The notes below the pieces were generated by a model, which worked only from the letters and a program-made list of their open reading frames with translations, did not search any database and was not told the origin of the DNA. A stretch of DNA of 64,000 bases, from positions 128,001 through 192,000 of the forward strand of contig CAVUWD010000008.1 of assembly GCA_963745025.1 (NCBI GenBank), given 5' to 3'. How positions within the stretch are numbered: position 1 is the stretch's first letter; the number at the start of each line of letters is the position of its first letter. Both the position numbers and the translations under genes were made by a program. Source of the stretch: an uncultured delta proteobacterium. GTDB lineage: Bacteria > Desulfobacterota > Binatia > JACPRU01. Positions 1,415-31,783 of this stretch are shown piece by piece.

Positions 1415-3355
1415 CTAGACAGAAGTTCCTCGACTTCCCAGTCTTGAAGTCTGGAGGAAGGGTCGAGGAGTCAGGGGGTTAGCGATTTTATGCCCCTGCA
1501 TTGTGTAGCCATGTAGATTCGTGTGTGTGGCTTGAAAAGATGGCATCAATGTGTATAATGCACCCATGCATGTCGATGTGGTGCCGAACCGCGGTTCTCG
1601 CCCGGCGTATCTGCTGCGTGAATCGTTCCGCGAAGGCGCCAAAGTCAGAAAGCGCACCCTCGCCAACCTCTCCTCCCTGCCCGATGAGCAGATCTTCGCC
1701 ATCCGTGCGATCTTGCGAGGCGAGAAGCTTCACCCCGCCGATGAGCTCTTCGAGGCCATTGCCTCGAGGCCTCACGGTCACGTCGAAGCCGTGCGTGTAG
1801 CCATGCAGCAACTCGGTTTCGAGCCGCTCGTGGCCTCACGTGGGTGTCGGGAGCGCGATCTGGTGTGCGCGATGGTGGCCGCTCGCATCATCGCCCCGCA
1901 CACCAAGCTCGCCACCACCCGCTGGTGGCACACCACCACCTTGGCCGAGGACCTCGGTGTGGCCGATGCCGACGAGGACGATCTCTACGCGGCGATGGAC
2001 TGGCTGCTCGAGCGTCAGGGGACGATCGAGAAGAAGCTCGCCACGCGCCATCTCGGCGAGGGGAGCCTGGTGCTGTACGACTTGAGCTCGAGCTACTTCG
2101 AGGGGACGACCTGTTCGCTGGCCAAGCTCGGGCACGATCGCGACGGCAAGAAGGGCAAGCTGCAGGTGAACTACGGGCTGCTCACCGATCGGCGCGGTTG
2201 CCCGGTGGCGGTGTCGGTCTACGACGGCAATACCAGCGACCCCAAGACCCTCATGCCGCAAGTCCACAAGCTCAAGAAGGACTTCGGCATCCAGACCCTG
2301 GTCCTGGTCGGCGACCGAGGGATGATTTCACAGAAGGCCATCGACGAGCTGCGGGAGCAGGACCAAGTCGCCTGGATCACGGCGCTCAAGACCCGTCAGA
2401 TTCGAGCGCTGGTGGAAGGGGGGCAGCTTCAGCTCGGGCTCTTCGACGAGAAGAACCTCTTCGAGCTCTCGCACCCGGACTTTCCTGCCGAGCGCCTGAT
2501 CGCATGCCGCAACCCGCAGCTAGCGAAGCTGCGCAATCACAAGCGGCAGTCCCTGCTCGATGCCACCGAGAAGGAGCTCGAGAAGGTCAGGGGCATGGTC
2601 GAGCGGGGGCGCCTTTCGGGCCGCGACGCTATCGGCGTGCGCGTCGGCAAGGTCGTCAACAAGTACAAGGTCGCCAAGCACTTCGCGCTCGACATCGAGG
2701 AGCACCGCTTCGGCTTCCATCGGCTCGAGGACGACATCGCTTCGGAAGCGGCCCTCGACGGCATCTACATCATCCGCACGAGCCTCGGGAAAAAGCAGAT
2801 GACGGCCGCCGACTGCGTGCGTAACTACAAGTCCCTGGCTCAGGTCGAGCGGGCGTTTCGATCGCTGAAGACCATCGATCTGAAGATCCGCCCCATCCAC
2901 CATCACCTCGCCGACCGCGTCAGAAGCCACATCTTCCTCTGCATGCTCGCCTACTATGTCGAGTGGCACATGCGAGAGGCCTGGCGCCCCTTGCTCTTCG
3001 CCGACGAGGATCCACTCGCCAAGACTACGCGCGATCCGGTGGCGCCCGCCAAGCGCTCCGCGGCCGCCGAAGCCAAGGCCGCCTCTCATCTCCTCGACGA
3101 CGGCACCCCCGCCCACAGCTTCTCCACCCTTCAACAGGAGCTCGCTACCATCGTCCGCAACACCTGCCGCGCCCCCCACGCCGGCGACGACGCCCCAACC
3201 TTCAAGATCACCACTACTCCCAACCCGAAGCAGCGTCGCGCCCTCGAACTCCTCAACGCCATCCACTTGTAGACAGAAACTCGCACACCTGACTCGGCCT
3301 ATCTGCACGAATTATCAAAGGAATCCCCTCGAAGCAGCGAGGAACTTCCGTCTAG
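1415..3355 (+). mobile_element. IS1634-family insertion sequence
   Basis: 18-bp terminal inverted repeats ctagacagaagttcctcg (1415-1432) and cgaggaacttccgtctag (3338-3355), 1 mismatch, enclosing a DDE transposase; no target duplication visible. Confidence 0.9.
1566..3272 (+). CDS. IS1634-family DDE transposase
   Basis: LLRESFREGAKVRKRTLANLS, LYDLSSSYFEG, LVGDRGMI, VERAFRSLKT, HIFLCMLAYYV. Confidence 0.93.
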   Translation: MHVDVVPNRGSRPAYLLRESFREGAKVRKRTLANLSSLPDEQIFAIRAILRGEKLHPADELFEAIASRPHGHVEAVRVAMQQLGFEPLVASRGCRERDLVCAMVAARIIAPHTKLATTRWWHTTTLAEDLGVADADEDDLYAAMDWLLERQGTIEKKLATRHLGEGSLVLYDLSSSYFEGTTCSLAKLGHDRDGKKGKLQVNYGLLTDRRGCPVAVSVYDGNTSDPKTLMPQVHKLKKDFGIQTLVLVGDRGMISQKAIDELREQDQVAWITALKTRQIRALVEGGQLQLGLFDEKNLFELSHPDFPAERLIACRNPQLAKLRNHKRQSLLDATEKELEKVRGMVERGRLSGRDAIGVRVGKVVNKYKVAKHFALDIEEHRFGFHRLEDDIASEAALDGIYIIRTSLGKKQMTAADCVRNYKSLAQVERAFRSLKTIDLKIRPIHHHLADRVRSHIFLCMLAYYVEWHMREAWRPLLFADEDPLAKTTRDPVAPAKRSAAAEAKAASHLLDDGTPAHSFSTLQQELATIVRNTCRAPHAGDDAPTFKITTTPNPKQRRALELLNAIHL

Positions 3356-3899
3356 TCCCACGTACAGTTTCATCGGGTTCATCCTCCCTTCTCGATTGGG
3401 ACACCCCTGCGGTGATCCCGTGGTCCGCCGTAGACCTTACTGCGGCCTGCGGGGAGGACATCCCACCTTCTTCGATACGGTAAATCGCAACACTCTCGCC
3501 GCGCGTTATCGGACCCTGGCACCCGGCCCGCCTGCGAAGCAGCTTTCTCCGCCCTCCGGACAAATAACGAGCATCGTCGTGCGCTTCCCGCAGCCTTCTA
3601 CTCCGATCGTATATTCGGCTCGCTGGACGCCGGAGACGAGAGGCCCTTGGACCGCAGGCTGAGTTATCTCCCTTGAGAGCACTTGCCCCGCCGCCTGCGG
3701 ACTCGCCTTTGGCATTGCGGGAACCCTAGAGTCTCTCTACCTGCTTGCCGGAGGAACGGTCCCGGGGACGATCATCAACGCCATCTATATGCCAACCATA
3801 GAACTGATGTGAGGAGGGAAAGCGGCGACAGGGCGACATTGGTCGGTGCGCCTAGCGCTGGCGTCGCGGGACCTCTCCCTGCGCGGAACTTGAGCATGG

Positions 3900-4230
3900 C
3901 GTGGCTGGAACGGCGAGCATCGGCCGGTACGTGCCGATGAAGGCCTTCTCGTCCGGCCAGAGGATGTGGGCGGTGTCGCGGATCGCCTGGCCCAGCTCCT
4001 CGACCGACATGTCGATCCAGAACTCGGCGATGCCGTCGTAGGGCGGTGCCTCGTCCCCGCGACCAGCCGCGCGTGTCGAGTGGTAGGCCGACGTTGGTCA
4101 CGTACTTGATGATTTTGTCCCCGAAAGTCTTCTTGACGAGCGGCGCATGGACTTCCGTCCAGTGGCGGACCGCTTGTTCGTGCGTCATATCGGGCCGGCG
4201 CGTCCAAAGCTCGAAGAGCTTGATAATGGA
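3900..4230 (-). pseudogene. EthD-domain protein, frameshifted (boundaries approximate)
   Basis: RRPDMTHEQAVRHWTEVHAPLV, then PPYDGIAEFWID in another frame. Confidence 0.65.
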
Positions 4231-4390
4231 TTCGTTCCTTCGTTCGTCGTCCGCATCTCAGTTCCACAGCCGGCTCGTCAAGGCGATCCGGGCTTCGGAT
4301 GAAGTCGCGAAGCCCAAATCATGCTATGAGCCAACCGCCCTCGGGAGGGGTCTTACCGCGCAAGCGAGAACCGTAACGACCGCGACAGGT

Positions 4391-5053
4391 TTGGTCCACG
4401 TAGCGGGCATCAAGGACCTTGCAGAGGCAAAGATGCTCGTCGAGTGCGGCGTCTCGTTTCTGGGTTTCCCGCTGGTTCTCGACGTTAACCGGGAGGACCT
4501 CACGGTGAACGAGGCCGCAGCAATCGTGGCGGCGATGCGCAGTCGCGCCACGTTCTTTCTGATCACGTACCTGGCTCGCTCGGCGGAGATTCTGGACCTT
4601 TGCCAGCGGTTGGGGGTTGGCATGGTGCAACTGCATGCCGCTACTGACGTAGCGGACCTCAAGCGTCTGCGCGAGAAGCGGCCGGGGCTCCGTATTGTGA
4701 AGAGCCTCATCGTGCATTCCGACAATTGCGATGAGCTGGCGGATGAAGTGGAGCGCTTCGCGCCGTGGGTCGATGCGTTCATCACCGATACGTACGACCC
4801 TGCCACCGGCGCGAGCGGCGCAACGGGCAAGACCCACGACTGGTCGGTGAGCCGTCGGTTGGTACGCCTGTCGCCGAGGCCGATCGTCCTGGCCGGTGGG
4901 CTCAATCCCGGAAACGTTCGTGCGGCGATCGCCGCCGTGCGCCCCGCCGGAGTCGACGTACACACCGGCATCGAGGGGCCCGACGGGCGCAAACGCGGGG
5001 ATCTGACCGAGCAGTTCGTAGCGGAGGCCCAGGCAGGGTTCGCGCGTGGGTGA
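4391..5053 (+). CDS. trpF: Phosphoribosylanthranilate isomerase-like (start approximate)
   Basis: VQLH, GASGATGKTHDW, IVLAGGLNPGNV, VRPAGVDVHTGIE. Confidence 0.8.
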   Translation: MVHVAGIKDLAEAKMLVECGVSFLGFPLVLDVNREDLTVNEAAAIVAAMRSRATFFLITYLARSAEILDLCQRLGVGMVQLHAATDVADLKRLREKRPGLRIVKSLIVHSDNCDELADEVERFAPWVDAFITDTYDPATGASGATGKTHDWSVSRRLVRLSPRPIVLAGGLNPGNVRAAIAAVRPAGVDVHTGIEGPDGRKRGDLTEQFVAEAQAGFARG

Positions 5054-5399
5054 GGGCGGAGGCCTTGCCCGTAGTCCAACACCGCATTTGCCGCAAAAAC
5101 GCTCGTCCGGCTGATTGCTCGCGCCGCACCCGAACGCGATCGCGCTTCGGATCGGCGGGAGGCTCATAGAAGTATTGCGAAGTGACGTCGCCGGGATTCT
5201 CGCCGACGATGAGGCATCGGAGAGGCTTTGGCATCCATCGACGCTCAACCTGCCAGCGATCCCAAGGGTGAGAAGCAGCATCACAACAGCTAGCCATCGA
5301 GATCTCTCCCTAGCGGCCGTCTAGTACCTCCAGGCCGGAGAAGTCGAGTCTCTTGCTCACCTCTCGCATCCCGGTAGGTCCCCGGTCCTGGCGGCGATT

Positions 5400-26804: not shown

Positions 26805-28013
26805 GTGCACCACGAAACCACACTGATCGCCACCATCGCTGTTAGTCTAGCCTTTGCCCTCGCCGGAGGCTTCATCGCTATCCGGCTGCGCCTGCCGTCT
26901 CTCGTCGGCTACTTACTGGCTGGCGTTGCTGTTGGGCCGTTCACTCCAGGGTTTGTCGCCGACGCGAAGCTTGCGCCACAACTGGCTGAGATCGGGGTCG
27001 TACTACTCATGTTTGGTGTCGGGATGCACATCTCGGTGCGCGACCTTTTGGCGGTTCGCGCGATAGCGGTGCCCGGTGCGGTTGTTCAGATCGCGGCAGC
27101 GACGGCGCTTGGTGTCGGTGTCGCTTTGCTGTGGGGCTGGTCGTTGGGCGCCGGTCTTGTCTTTGGGCTGTCCCTCTCGGTGGCCAGCACGGTCGTGCTC
27201 CTCCGTGCGCTCGGGGCATGGGGCATCCTGGACTCGAGCAATGGCCGCGTGGCGGTCGGCTGGCTCGTCGTCGAAGACCTCGTGATGGTTCTTACACTCG
27301 TGTTGCTCCCAGCGTTAGCAGGGTCGCTTGGCGGACAGCCGTCCAGCCACGCCAACGTTGGCACCGCATCACAGAATCTGTTGGCTATAGTAGCTCTGAC
27401 CTTTGGCAAGGTGGCGGCGTTTATCGTCCTGATGCTGCTGGTTGGCACGCGCGTCTTTCCGTGGTTGCTCGAGCGGATCGAGGAGACTGGGTCGCGAGAG
27501 CTGTTCACACTCGCCGTGGTTGCTCTCGCTTTGGGCGTCGCCTTCGGCTCGGCGGAGCTCTTCGGGGTATCGTTTGCTCTCGGAGCTTTCTTTGCCGGCG
27601 TGGTTATCAACGAGTCTGATTTGAGCCACCGCGCGGCAACCGATTTGCGGCCTTTGGAGGACGCCTTCGCCGTCCTCTTCTTCGTGGCGGTCGGTATGCT
27701 CTTCGACCCAAGCATCCTGCTGCGTCAGCCCCTTCAAGTTGTTACGGTCGTCGCAATCATTGTTCTCGGCAAGTCAGTAGCCGCTGGGGCCATCGTGTTG
27801 GCGTTCCGGTACCCTCTCGATGCGGCGCTGACGGTTTCCGCGGCGCTGGCGCAGATCGGCGAGTTCTCTTTTATCCTCGCTGCGCTGGGCGTCAGCCTCG
27901 GGCTCCTGCCAGCGGAGGCGCACAACCTGATCGTGGCGGGTGCGCTCGTCTCGATCACCGTTAATCCGCTTCTCTTTTCCGCAATCGCCAACGTGTACCC
28001 CGGGAAGCGGCCT
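26805..28013 (+). CDS. CPA2 cation:proton antiporter (Kef/YbaL-like) on a gene cassette; native 3' end displaced by IS110
   Basis: LVGYLLAGVAVGPFTPG, LAEIGVVLLMFGVG, LSVASTVV, WLVVEDL, LAQIGEFSFILA; no TrkA-N domain. Confidence 0.9.
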
Positions 28014-28038
28014 CCTAAGAAACAACGACAGTAGGGGT

Positions 28039-29436
28039 TTATAATTGCACGAGTTGGAAGCCGAGAGAGGCGGCGCGCTTGGAGAGAGAGCGGACGGTGC
28101 GCTCGCGGAATTTGAGTTCGTAGTAATCGATGCCGAGATCTTTGTAGGGTTGGCGGTGCTTCCACATTCGGTAGAAGATGCGCGAGAGCTTGTGGGCGGT
28201 GGCGGTGATGGCCTTGGGGGGCCCGAGTCGGGCGCGCATGCGGCGATGAAAGGCACCCAGAGCGGTGTGGCTGTTGCCGGCAGACTGAGCGGCTCGGCGT
28301 AAGGCAGTGGCCACACGGTTGGAGGCTTTTCGGGTCTTGGAGCTTTTCACTTCTCCTCCGGTGACACGGTTGTCGGGGCACAGCGCAAGCCAGGAGGCGA
28401 AGTGCTTCTCGGAGGGAAACTTCGAGGGATCGAGGCCGACCTCGGAAAGGATGGTCTGCACGGTGAGGGCATCGAACCCCGTGATGGCGGTGAAGTCGAC
28501 GCCTGAGATTCGATAGAGGTGGGTGCGCAGGTCGAAGCCAGCCTCGTTGCGCTGGGGCTTGCGGTGGGTGGCCTTGGGTTGTCCCAGGGGCGTGAGAGCA
28601 GGGTCGACTTGGGTGTCGAAGCCGCCCAGGCATTGCTCGATCCGCAGGTCGCAGTCGGCAATCATGCTGCGGTAGGTGTCATAGAGCGAGAGGCATTGCT
28701 CAAGTGCGAAGAGGTGCTCGGGTCGGTAGTCGCCCTGGAGGGATTGGGCGATGCGCTCGGAGGTGCTCTTGATGCGATGATCGCGCATCGCGGCCAGAAG
28801 CTGTGGATCTCGCTCACCGGCGAGGATGGAGCGAATGATTCTCATGCCGCTGACGCCGGTGATGTCACTGATGACCTTGTGAAGCTGGATGTTCATCTGG
28901 GTCAGGGCCTTCTGCATGCGCTGCACGTGAGCGGCCGCGTCGCGGATGAGAGTATCGCGCTGGCGGATGTAGCTGCGCAGCACGCAGGTCTGATCGTCGG
29001 GACGAAACGATCCCGAGAGTAGACCAAAGGTGTGCAGCTGCTGGAGCCACTGGCAGTCCTGGATGTCGCTCTTTCTGCCGGGCAGGTTTTTGACGTGGCG
29101 GGCGTTGACGAGCTTGACCTCGAAGCCGCGCGTCTCGAGGATCTGAAAGAGCGGGATCCAGTAGACTCCGGTGGATTCCATGACCACGGTGTCGACTCCG
29201 CACTGCTCGAGCCAGTCAGCCAGACGGTGCAAATCGGCGGTGAAGCACTCGAAGCGGCGCACGGGCTGCGGATCGCGGTCCTCGGGAACCGCCACGTAGT
29301 GCTCGGCGGATCCGACATCGATGCCGGCGGCGTTGAGGTGCACAGCCTTGAGGCTCGCGGGCAACCCCGTTCCTCGCGCGACGCTCTTTCTCTTTCGGCC
29401 TGCGCCGGGTTTGATAGACTCCTTCATCGAGTACAC
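28039..29436 (-). CDS. IS110-family (DEDD) transposase/recombinase
   Basis: GIDVG, MESTGVYW, KSDIQD, FASWLALCP..TGG, AITATAHKL. Confidence 0.95.
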   Translation of the reverse strand: MYSMKESIKPGAGRKRKSVARGTGLPASLKAVHLNAAGIDVGSAEHYVAVPEDRDPQPVRRFECFTADLHRLADWLEQCGVDTVVMESTGVYWIPLFQILETRGFEVKLVNARHVKNLPGRKSDIQDCQWLQQLHTFGLLSGSFRPDDQTCVLRSYIRQRDTLIRDAAAHVQRMQKALTQMNIQLHKVISDITGVSGMRIIRSILAGERDPQLLAAMRDHRIKSTSERIAQSLQGDYRPEHLFALEQCLSLYDTYRSMIADCDLRIEQCLGGFDTQVDPALTPLGQPKATHRKPQRNEAGFDLRTHLYRISGVDFTAITGFDALTVQTILSEVGLDPSKFPSEKHFASWLALCPDNRVTGGEVKSSKTRKASNRVATALRRAAQSAGNSHTALGAFHRRMRARLGPPKAITATAHKLSRIFYRMWKHRQPYKDLGIDYYELKFRERTVRSLSKRAASLGFQLVQL

Positions 29437-29448
29437 CTCCTTGGAGTT

Positions 29449-29620
29449 GGGATGTGCTCGGGCCGGGTGGGTCGAAGGTGAGAAATCTCCTAAACGGGAT
29501 AACCCTCCGTGCGAGGGAGGGCTTCACCAATGAAACAACCGCAAGCCCCCCGGAACCATGCTAACCCACGGGCGCGAAGGCACCATTGGCGCTACGGTCT
29601 TAGCTACCCGAGCACATCCC
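29449..29620 (-). ncRNA. Putative IS110 bridge RNA
   Basis: Closed by a perfect 14-bp IR (29449-62 / 29607-20); internal short matches to donor and target junctions. Confidence 0.55.
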
Positions 29621-29702
29621 GGTGTACTCGACGCACACCGGCGCAGCAAAGACACTCAGGTTTCTTCCATCAACAACACCGCGCCTCGCGCGGGGTCAAA
29701 TG

Positions 29703-29795
29703 CTAACACGGCGTTGGAACGGCCCCGCGCATGAACGGCGAGTCATCAAGGCGAGCCGCGGTGGGCGCGAGCCGCTCAACCTTCGGTCGTTGATA
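29703..29795 (+). other. attC recombination site (R'' box split by IS110)
   Basis: (GC)CTAAC-acggc-gttggaacggc...gccgctcaac-N8-GTT; L''/L' pair with one extra G and one mismatch. Confidence 0.75.
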
Positions 29796-30010
29796 TGGCT
29801 GACCCGACACACCCCTCTGGAGGTACCGTGGACGAGATCGAACTAGCCCAAGAACTTGCTACAGAGCTGGGTTGGAGTATCCAGGCCACCTATCCTGGGC
29901 TTCGAGCGGTCCACGCCCTCGGACGCGCCATCGACGCCGCACGCACGATCCACCTCCGCCCCGCCGGCCTGGTCGGCCGTCAGGGGCGGTTCACGCCTGC
30001 CTGACCGGGC

Positions 30011-30460
30011 TCAGGACTCGATCAGCTCGATCCGCACCTTCGCCACGCCGCGACGGACCATACCGAGGACGCGGGCCGCGCCGTAGGACAGGTCGATCGC
30101 GCGGCGGTAACGGTACGGCCCCCGGTCGTTGATCGTCACCAGGACCGAGCGGCCGTTGCGCAGGTTCGTCACCCGCACCTTGCTGCCGAGGGGCAGGGTC
30201 GGGTGGGCGCCGGTCAGGTCCTGCGGGTCGAACTCCTCGCCACTGGCGGTACGCCGGCGCGCGAACTCCTGACCGTACCAGGATGCCTGTCCGATCTGGG
30301 CCCCGTCCGTCGGCAGCTCATCCGCACGAGCAGGCGGGGCGAACGCCAGCAGGGTGACGAACGCAACCCAGGCGCAAACGCACCGTAACGCGAGCCGCTG
30401 GCCGGCATCGAAGTAGGGACCGGAGTTTGCTCCGAGGCCCCCGGACGAGGCAGTTTGCAT
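30011..30460 (-). CDS. rlpA: Septal ring lytic transglycosylase RlpA family (DPBB)
   Basis: GQASWYG..RTASGE, AHPTLPLGS, INDRGP, IDLS. Confidence 0.92.
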   Translation of the reverse strand: MQTASSGGLGANSGPYFDAGQRLALRCVCAWVAFVTLLAFAPPARADELPTDGAQIGQASWYGQEFARRRTASGEEFDPQDLTGAHPTLPLGSKVRVTNLRNGRSVLVTINDRGPYRYRRAIDLSYGAARVLGMVRRGVAKVRIELIES

Positions 30461-30469
30461 CGTTGGGCT

Positions 30470-30600
30470 CCTTGAACGCCGGCGAAGTTAGCTGACGGGT
30501 TCGGGCTCAAAGAGCGTAGCCCGTCCGGGTCCGTTGCCGCGACCCGGATTAGCCCCAAGACGCTGGGTCCTCCGCTCCCCTTCCGGGGATTAGGCGCGTA
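30470..30600 (-). promoter_or_regulatory. c-di-AMP (ydaO/yuaA) riboswitch
   Basis: Minus strand: CGCCTAATCC..GCGGAGGACCC..TTGGGGCTAATCC..CCCGAACCCGTCAGCTAACTTCGCCGGCG, ending at the rlpA SD (aaggag). Confidence 0.88.
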
Positions 30601-30751
30601 TTATGGGCGCTATTGCCGCAAAGCTGGGACCCCGTCAACGCCCGTGGAGGATGAACCTGGGCGCGTCCGGCGTAAATTGAGCTTATTCAGCCCCTTAGCG
30701 TGCGGTCGAGGAACCCGTCGGTCTCCCGAGTGTGCGGGGCAGGCGCGATCG

Positions 30752-31783
30752 TCAGCCCAATTTGGGCATGACGTGTCGCGCGAAAAGCTCCATCGATCGA
30801 AGCGTCTTCTTCGGATCGTTCCCCGGCATCGACATGTACGTCACGAGGTGCGAGCCCGGGGAACGCGCCAGGTAGTCCTGAAGCCCGGCCCTGACCTCGT
30901 CGGGCGTGCCGACGAAGGCCGGCTCGCCGAAGAACTCCCCCTTCTGTTCCTTGCGAAACTGTGCGGGCGTGGGCACTGCCTGCCCTTCGACGTCGCCCGT
31001 GATGTCGCCCGAAGCGACCGCCCAGTCGTGGTAATATTTGAGCACGTGGTGGAAGCCGTCGGCGATGTCGTCCCACGCCCCTTCGTGCGTATCGGCGCAA
31101 TAGCACAAGACGAGCTGGAGGATCTTGAAATCGGCAGGATTGCGGCCATGGCGCTCGAGCGCCGCGATGTACTTGGCGCGGTGATGTCCCACTCCGACGG
31201 AGGCGAAATGGAAGCCGAGACGCGCGGCGCGATCGATGGCCTTGTCGGCGCGCGCGCCCACCCAGATCGGAAGGTTCTGTTGCACGGGCGGCGGCGCGAT
31301 CTGGATGTTGTCCAGGTGGTTGTGTTCGCCTTGGAAGCTGAACTTCTCCCCGCTCAGCAGCCCGCGAAGAACGTGCAAGCCCTCCTCCATGCGGCGGGCG
31401 CGCTGGCCGTGGCGGATGCCGCGGGGGTCGAACTCGTAGGGGACGTAGCCCTGGCCGACACCGAGGTCGAAACGCCCGTTCGATATGATGTCCACCGTGG
31501 CGGCATTCTCCGCCACCGCGATCGGATCGTGCAGCGGCAAGAGCACCACGAACGTCCCGATACGAATCCTGCTCGTCCGCGCCGCCACCGCTCCGGCGAT
31601 CGCCATCAGCGAAGGCGAATAGCCGTCGGCGGCGAAATGATGCTCGGTGAGCCAGACGTGACCGTAGCCGAGCTTCTCGGACTCGACGATCAGGTCGAGA
31701 TCATCCCGGTAGAGGTCCGGCCACGGACGCTTTTTGAACGGCGGATTGCGAAATCCGAAGAGAACGCCACAATCGATGGCCAT
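30752..31783 (-). CDS. LLM-class flavin-dependent oxidoreductase
   Basis: VWLTEHHF, SNGRFDLGVGQGY, FVGTPDEV. Confidence 0.92.
   Translation of the reverse strand: MAIDCGVLFGFRNPPFKKRPWPDLYRDDLDLIVESEKLGYGHVWLTEHHFAADGYSPSLMAIAGAVAARTSRIRIGTFVVLLPLHDPIAVAENAATVDIISNGRFDLGVGQGYVPYEFDPRGIRHGQRARRMEEGLHVLRGLLSGEKFSFQGEHNHLDNIQIAPPPVQQNLPIWVGARADKAIDRAARLGFHFASVGVGHHRAKYIAALERHGRNPADFKILQLVLCYCADTHEGAWDDIADGFHHVLKYYHDWAVASGDITGDVEGQAVPTPAQFRKEQKGEFFGEPAFVGTPDEVRAGLQDYLARSPGSHLVTYMSMPGNDPKKTLRSMELFARHVMPKLG

Follow-up and report, generated by a model that had tools for sequence, protein, structure and literature searches.

The subject of this analysis is an insertion sequence (IS) of the IS110 family found in a 64,000-nucleotide stretch of DNA (the window) from an uncultured delta proteobacterium of the Binatia (assembly GCA_963745025.1, contig CAVUWD010000008.1, positions 128,001 to 192,000). 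The IS comprises 1,691 bp (28014-29704, minus strand) and is located at the 3'-end of a cation:proton antiporter gene, at the edge of an imperfect hairpin resembling the attC sites of integrons. The best explanation is probably a recently active IS110-type IS that uses a 7-nt guide and is found in excess at the edges of attC hairpins as well as at other CTAAC sites. Element boundaries, copy number, protein domains, the covariation of guides with flanks and of the hairpin arms, the arrays in related genomes and an integron integrase gene (intI) neighboring such an array in one relative were observed directly. The IS can be regarded as an unnamed new IS110-type member with a partial attC preference.

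Coordinates without a contig prefix refer to the window; C denotes a contig and L an extracted locus. The assembly under study (G000, 5.65 Mb, 92.65% complete) was compared with seven other genomes of the order (G001 to G007). Five insertion sites of the IS were found in G000, namely the window site, C12:72179-73869, C16:890226-891916, C12:115258-116952, whose contig stops 8 nt beyond the IS, and C8:103161-104485. Identity among these copies is 100% for three and 98% for two of them, and C20 begins with a fragment of 256 nt. The five sites have unrelated left flanks, each ending in CT, and AAC follows the IS in every case. At all five sites the duplication comprises the core dinucleotide alone, with CT present once in the flank (28012-28013 at the left junction of the window copy, AG in IS orientation) and once at the IS end (29703-29704), where together with the following AAC it regenerates CTAAC. 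In the window the left flank ends in GCGGCCT and the right flank begins with AACACGGCG; joined, they form a GCCT^AAC box (the caret marks the insertion point). Thus, the CT at both ends and the restoration of this box with pairing arms, 8 nt and GTT upon removal of the IS, both described in the original prediction, were confirmed.

Public sequencing data were available as contigs of 4 metagenome runs, out of 20 runs containing part of the stretch. In these 4 runs unitig-like contigs end at 28012/28014 and at 29707, and one contig (X9, record 26, 27923-28420) spans the left junction. Since the copies share their junctions and the public-run contigs stop there, the boundaries and the insertion are considered real. 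No contig of the 4 runs joins 28013 to 29705 or the two IS ends to each other; such contigs drop rare forms, and hence this result is uninformative. The right flank from 29728 to 30300 has near-zero cover in the same contigs. When the 8 genomes of the order were searched at the DNA level, neither the antiporter gene nor the right flank led to an ortholog of the junction, and no further copies of the same IS were detected in the 7 relatives except for a relic in G005. Among metagenome contigs an exact 25-mer of the left IS end gave zero matches, and a 22-mer around the guide described below gave 3 matches (L129, L130 and L131).

The transposase gene (28039-29436, minus strand) encodes a DEDD recombinase of 465 amino acids if counted from GTG; an ATG at 29427, preceded by AAGGAGG, is the likelier start. 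The protein matches DEDD_Tnp_IS110 (PF01548, 78.6 bits) and Transposase_20 (PF02371, 43.2 bits) in Pfam as well as the NCBIfam model NF033542 ("IS110 family RNA-guided transposase", 276.4 bits versus a cut-off of 140). A 5' non-coding region of 268 nt (29437-29704, minus strand), presumed to encode a bridge or seek RNA, has a fold z-score of -3.78 and a scaffold that is kept in 12 relatives. In contrast, the 3' non-coding region at the right end comprises only 25 nt (28014-28038, minus strand); it ends in GTTTCTTAGG+AG in IS orientation and includes a GTTTCTT motif kept across the clade. The long 5' non-coding region thus agrees with the earlier description, and the identity as an IS110-type element appears well supported by the sequence. 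The longest inverted match between the IS ends is the 7-bp pair AAGAAAC/GTTTCTT: AAGAAAC at 28017-28023 (plus strand) is matched in inverted orientation by AAGAAAC at IS positions 39-45 (29660-29666), and GTTTCTT lies 4-10 nt from the right end. Both halves are kept across 12 aligned relatives and may represent a short subterminal repeat or an extra contact between RNA and donor. The C8:103161-104485 copy (L005) lacks IS positions 220-583, corresponding to the non-coding end and the first ~100 transposase codons, and may have arisen by deletion or reflect a collapsed assembly. A hairpin of 65 nt belonging to the repeat family described below lies 212 nt upstream of this copy.

The 5' non-coding region was compared with those of relatives on plasmids and genome contigs, which resulted in an alignment of 12 sequences. 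The guide scan comprised 85 sources (the window and 84 loci), of which 25 carry scaffold anchors and 60 are without anchor motifs. The conserved scaffold reads GACCG...UGGUGC...GCCCGU, 7 variable nt, CAUGGUUC...CAUUGGUGA, a hairpin, AUCCCGUU and 6 variable nt. In the window the 7-mer directly 5' of CAUGGUUC is GGGUUAG (29561-29567, minus strand), the putative left target guide, which carries the sense of the left target plus an AG core. Comparison of this 7-mer with the locus' own flank in the 25 anchored loci revealed 17 perfect matches, 5 with one mismatch and 3 loci with no match. The match is positioned 126-194 nt upstream, where sister copies diverge, and hence corresponds to left flank plus core. 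The guide differs between relatives: TTAGGAG was found in Nostoc and Gloeocapsopsis, ATCTCAG in Kovacikia, TGTAGAG in Paraburkholderia, TTGTTAG in 3 copies in a Binatia metagenome-assembled genome whose transposase is 78% identical, and TTGCGAG four times within a REP-like (repetitive extragenic palindrome-like) repeat, GTCATTGCGAG.

The putative left donor guide UUAGGAG (29487-29493, minus strand) directly follows a conserved AUCCCGU, carries the sense of the right-end tip plus the AG core and covaries with the right-end tips of relatives. The 6 nt after AUCCCGUU equal the own right-end tip in 13 out of 13 rows in which this end was located, with three variants (TAGGAG, TGAAAG and TGAGAG). 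Because AG terminates both guides in each of the 12 aligned elements, without any variation, the sequences identify AG in transposase orientation as the core of this clade. An IS621-like CT core, as originally proposed, is therefore not retained; the likeness is a coincidence of the reverse complement. The GGGUUAG guide explains the CTAAC common to the insertion sites. The left-target 7-mers at the five G000 sites are GTGTTAG, AGGTTAG, GGGTTAG, AGGTTAG and TTGTTAG; all five match the guide at GTTAG, and only one also does so at the two distal positions. Right flanks of sister copies are unrelated, both in G000 and in relatives. RNAalifold yielded a weak consensus for 12 regions (-15.6 kcal/mol, 25 pairs), and a full bridge-RNA fold is not claimed. 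Rfam gave no match in the IS or the hairpin within 27000-31000, its sole match being a nearby c-di-AMP riboswitch described below. Taken as a logic of guides and matching flanks, the RNA guide of this element is well supported, and we infer RNA guidance itself from it. On the Nostoc and Gloeocapsopsis plasmids (L045 and L046) the left target, TTGTT(T/C)(C/G)TTAGG+AG, resembles the right-end tip of the clade, GTTTCTTAGG+AG. The ends of sibling IS may serve as targets for the guides of these cyanobacterial relatives.

The hairpin next to the IS belongs to a repeat family with a unit of ~97 nt, whose members were found with blast, with nhmmer and with R1, a covariance model for which six copies, the window hairpin among them, had been used. 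Eight members were found in G000 and 1 to 17 in each of the seven other genomes. The family layout is (G)YCTAAC, 5 nt, GGTTGGAGCGG, a variable stem and tip, CCGCTCAAC, 8 nt and GTTAGNN. The base is formed by pairing of CTAAC with GTTAG, an asymmetric spacer is left unpaired, and two single-base bulges are located in the 5' arm (alignment columns 18 and 25), which would correspond to the canonical extrahelical bases of attC. The attC consensus boxes are RYYYAAC for R'' and GTTRRRY for R'. Among 30 members 92.9% of the cells are paired and 21 out of 31 pairs show compensatory changes, which compares with 0 out of 500 shuffles reaching this pairing and with 30-39% in slid controls; the alignment was fitted to the model, which somewhat favours structure. 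The A-U, A-U and C-G pairs formed by AAC and GTT are kept in 27-29 of the 30 members.

In relatives the members form co-oriented arrays with a spacing of 350-1,900 bp, e.g. 7 hits in 5.5 kb on G002:C9, 6 hits on G001:C2 and 3 hits on G004:C86. The G000 members are scattered singly or in pairs. The pairs on C6 and C12 each enclose a toxin-antitoxin cassette with a BrnT toxin open reading frame (ORF), whose partner matches BrnA in the C6 pair and has no Pfam match in the C12 pair; in G005 a MazEF cassette lies between two family hairpins. An integron integrase (TIGR02249, cut-off 265) was detected in two relatives, with 470 bits in G004 and 439 bits in G003, where the gene is located at a contig start. 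The G004 intI (358 amino acids) is followed downstream by four family hits on the same strand, and two ORFs (3357-4049 and 2811-3344) each run a few nt past the 5' edge of a hit before they stop. Five other relatives, all incomplete genomes, have no intI over the cut-off. The repeat family therefore very probably represents the attC type of the lineage's chromosomal integrons, judged from these sequence features. It shares with attC sites, with solitary attC and with clusters of attC sites lacking integrases (CALIN) the boxes of the RYYYAAC...GTTRRRY type, one-sided bulges, a variable tip, a length of ~97 nt, arrays following ORFs and the intI of a relative. Differences from typical integrons are the absence from G000 of an intI above the cut-off, the solitary and degenerate state of the window copy, and the orientation of the G004 intI, which points in the same direction as the cassettes instead of being divergent from them. 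In the G004 locus (L019, G004:C248, 800-5175) intI occupies 4099-5175 on the minus strand, co-directional with four attC-type hits beyond its 3'-end; the 5' side of intI is occupied by an acyl-CoA dehydrogenase gene, and the array contains a fragment of a DDE transposase.

The window hairpin (29699-29797, plus strand; 77 bits with R1, structure supported by family covariation) comprises CTAAC at 29703-29707, an L''-type arm GTTGGAACGGC at 29713-29723 that pairs with the L'-type arm GCCGCTCAAC at 29771-29780, 8 nt and an R'-type GTTGATA at 29789-29795. It looks like a stranded, decaying attC behind an accessory antiporter gene. The latter (26805-28034, plus strand) encodes a CPA2 (YbaL/Kef-like) cation:proton antiporter of 409 amino acids as it stands (Pfam Na_H_Exchanger, 172.9 bits). 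Only positions 1-388 of the 547 positions of the NCBIfam YbaL model are matched (526 bits versus a cut-off of 700), and hence the protein is without the C-terminal KTN/RCK domain. The last 7 codons and the stop codon fall within the IS: the frame ends in GKRPPKKQRQ with the IS and, as previously noted, in GKRP^NTALERPRA after its removal in silico. Thus, the insertion swapped the last 9 residues for 6 others. A DNA-level ortholog of the antiporter gene was not detected in the sister genome. Ahead of the gene there is an ORF-poor stretch of 650 nt.

The proposed IS would consist of a DEDD recombinase gene with a 5' bridge or seek RNA ahead of it, and it would be recently active. Its target would be chosen mainly by the left target guide GGGUUAG, with no right-side specificity found. 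The guide would read (N)(N)GTTAG, in which AG is the exchanged core, corresponding to CT^AAC on the plus strand of the window. CTAAC would at the same time be the conserved inverse-core (R'') motif of the attC hairpins of the lineage's chromosomal integrons. Because guide and R'' box have CTAAC in common, the IS would be found above chance at the 5' edge of the hairpins and always antisense to the cassette; it would also insert at other CTAAC sites, often at gene ends. In the window the IS would have entered a decaying attC-like site that stands alone at the 3'-end of an antiporter gene of the KTN-less CPA2 type, and the point of entry would be its R''-type box.

The insertion sites are consistent with a plausible but partial attC preference. 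The window copy is inserted at GCCT^AAC of the hairpin. The C12:72179-73869 copy is inserted at CT^AAC 5 nt outside an intact R'' box, within a run of repeated CTAAC. In G005, which belongs to another genus, an internally deleted relic of an 80%-identical IS (G005:C6, L039 925-1180) abuts GCGGTCT directly after the mazF stop codon of the MazEF cassette, between the two hairpins; it has the orientation of the window IS and is followed downstream by a GDT1-family ORF and the next attC-type hit. Hence, insertion near the 5'-end of attC and antisense to the cassette was observed for the window copy, the C12 copy and the relic, that is for 2 out of 5 copies in G000. Of the 819 CTAAC occurrences on both strands of G000 5 lie in the R'' regions of the eight hairpins, and under uniform choice the placement of 2 out of 5 copies in such regions has P ~4e-4. 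The sequence data suggest that the IS favours attC-like hairpins without being dedicated to them. Around the C12 copy (L002, 1470-1503 and 3195-3210) 3-4 CTAAC repeats flank the IS, with GGTCTAACCCCAACCT on one side and AACCTAAC on the other. Earlier events at the attC edge, by recombination or by an IS, may have left these repeats behind as a footprint.

Several results weigh against this explanation. As to the target sites, the C16 and C8:103160 copies have no R1 match on the right flank, the former being located in unrelated sequence, and the C12:115257 site, with a flank of 8 nt only, is not judgeable. The enrichment test is post hoc, includes five sites and does not separate targeting from selection. 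A hairpin with a perfect guide match (C4, CTAACCC) is empty, and the R' boxes with GTTAG are all unoccupied. The 78%-identical Binatia relatives with the guide TTGTTAG (3 copies) lie outside such hairpins, and the same-guide metagenome relatives L130 and L131 are inserted at CT^AACCAGCGG, not at family hairpins. As to the guides, a perfect match was found at only 1 out of 5 G000 sites, whereas relatives mostly match perfectly; no right target or donor guide was found among complements of core plus right flank in 13 non-coding regions; and the weak consensus fold sets both guides 3' in loops, unlike in the IS621 description. As to the hairpin, the window copy is solitary, being the sole R1 match in 64 kb, and degenerate, with 6 out of 31 pairs broken and the deviant R' box GTTGATA. 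Single-sequence minimum-energy DNA folds, with or without the IS, miss the family fold, and for this reason the structure rested on the family alignment. Finally, no intI over the cut-off was found in G000 (92.65% complete), the best match reaching 73.9 bits.

R1 gave no match on the three same-guide metagenome contigs L129, L130 and L131, with the L129 junction not placeable. The closest plasmid relatives (cyanobacterial, 60-64%, and enterobacterial, 50%) are not in integrons. L130 and L131 carry diverged relatives at CT^AACCAGCGGCTCCCCG; 16 nt past the junction are common to both and the sequences are unrelated further out. The alignment of the flanks of other copies, suggested as a check by the original prediction, thus revealed CT^AAC at every site of G000, but no attC match at C16 and C8:103160 and the closest relatives with GTTAG guides outside hairpins.

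The original prediction held that the IS is dedicated to attC and immobilizes ("locks") the cassette by destroying the R'' box. Such dedicated targeting would agree with 2 out of 5 copies and one relic at R''-type boxes, all antisense to the cassette, and with the position and orientation reported for the IS1111-attC group (PMC3001079). For the attC-like hairpin, insertion at the CT^AAC of its R''-type box was indeed found, with the qualification that the hairpin is solitary and degenerate in a genome without intI over the cut-off. Likewise, attC targeting is upheld insofar as a second copy and the relic of another genus are at the same kind of place in the same orientation, but it is not attC-specific: two of the five sites are without an attC match on the flank, a third is not judgeable, and the guide comprises 7 nt without right-side specificity. 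Locking fares worse. Because the IS ends in CT, the junction reads CTAAC again; only the outer two bases of the 7-nt box are altered, and the whole hairpin is contiguous on one side of the IS. R1 yields 77 bits across the junction, though this sequence was among the six used to build the model, and at the C12 copy the box 5 nt away is fully intact. Since the insertion regenerates CTAAC and lies outside the hairpin, locking of the cassette is unsupported, and the IS could just as well become cargo of the cassette. Altogether we consider a dedicated, cassette-locking IS110 element quite unlikely.

A different view is that the IS takes any (N)(N)GTTAG site and that the association with attC results purely from purifying selection, which spares gene ends and non-coding hairpins. 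CTAAC/GTTAG contains the stop codons TAA and TAG, and the three non-attC sites are at or near ORF ends. Together with the empty perfect-match hairpin and the relatives with GTTAG-type guides outside hairpins, this gives the selection view some weight, and we regard it as possible, but doubtful. Given the large number of intergenic CTAAC sites to be expected, it hardly accounts for 2 out of 5 copies on 5 of 819 motif sites, 819 being a total in which intergenic sites are not separated, nor for an independent relic at the same box in another genus. It could also be argued that the family consists of REP-like or other palindromic elements of this lineage, the usual prey of IS110 and IS1111 elements, rather than of attC sites, as G000 has no intI, its copies are single or paired, and other clade members target REP-like repeats such as GTCATTGCGAG, found four times. 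The CTAAC...GTTAG basal boxes, the one-arm bulges and variable tip, the co-oriented arrays spaced by 350-1,900 bp, the location right after ORF stops and beside intI in G004, and the toxin-antitoxin cassettes between copies make this improbable. Hence, a guided IS with an excess at attC edges is retained as the likely explanation.

Comparisons with described systems are based on parts of the respective publications. Elements of the IS1111-attC group (ISPst6, ISPa21, ISKpn4 and ISPa25) insert near the 5'-end of attC, antisense to cassette transcription (PMC11187229, PMC3001079); their non-coding region is downstream of the transposase gene, the transposases comprise 330-350 amino acids and subterminal inverted repeats are present (PMC11187229). 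The original prediction had cited attC targeting and a 3' non-coding region for this group, in agreement with these sources. The IS described here resembles the group in the DEDD transposase superfamily, the presumed RNA-guided targeting, the position at attC and the antisense orientation. In contrast to the group, it has an upstream region of 268 nt, 465 amino acids, only a 7-bp inverted pair and attC at 2 out of 5 copies. Hence, the IS1111-type layout of a downstream non-coding region, ~330-350 amino acids and subterminal inverted repeats was not found in the window IS.

IS621 encodes a recombinase of ~326 amino acids and has a CT core, a left target guide of 9 nt and a right target guide of 4 nt (PMC11208160). 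Its guides carry the sense of left target or donor plus core, and the target loop precedes the donor loop (PMC11208160). Our element is similar to that of Durrant et al. 2024 in its upstream non-coding RNA, the sense left guides with core, the order of guides with the target guide first and the dinucleotide core in target and donor. It is unlike IS621 in its 465 amino acids, AG core, left target guide of 7 nt and the lack of a detectable right target guide. ISEc21 (358 amino acids) has a linear target inside IS3-family transposase genes (Siddiquee et al. 2024, PMC11187229), and proteins of the IS110 subgroup with seekRNA comprise 395-455 amino acids (PMC11187229). ISEc21 and this subgroup share with our element the upstream non-coding region and a bottom-strand match ahead of the others, and the size range of the subgroup is close to that of our protein; the ISEc21 target, unlike ours, is linear and lies in IS3-family genes. 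In the parts of the literature considered here attC targeting is reported for IS1111-family elements only (PMC11187229, PMC11208160, PMC3001079, PMC11089894, PMC12444791). An IS110-type element at attC was not found there; supplementary target tables (>300 IS), which were outside the scope, may list one.

A more far-reaching interpretation is that the habit of the IS1111-attC group was acquired independently by an IS110-type lineage whose bridge RNA is encoded upstream and whose recombinase comprises 465 amino acids. Its 7-nt guide would then be tuned to the inverse-core box of attC, allowing colonisation of the chromosomal integron cassettes of an uncultured lineage in a fixed antisense orientation and travel inside cassettes. 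We put forward this convergence, in which the other branch of the family would parasitize integrons by RNA guidance, only tentatively and consider it rather unlikely. If the attC bias reflects real targeting, integron sites would have been captured at least twice as landing pads of RNA-guided IS, with the guide RNA encoded at opposite ends of the element, and environmental chromosomal integrons would carry passengers inside their cassettes. Furthermore, the 7-nt guides of the clade form a natural set of reprogrammed variants that keep the AG core and in which a right-side requirement is not apparent; such a set may help to define how little specificity bridge recombinases need. Within the window the effect is minor, as an accessory antiporter gene is affected in its last few residues.

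Two further features are located to the right of the IS. The ORF list contains an ORF of 69 amino acids (29795-30004, plus strand) whose ATG overlaps the R'-type box and which has no Pfam match. A c-di-AMP (ydaO-type) riboswitch was detected with 87.8 bits at 30463-30606 on the minus strand, directly upstream of the ORF at 30011-30460 (minus strand), which encodes a DPBB_1/RlpA-like lytic transglycosylase.

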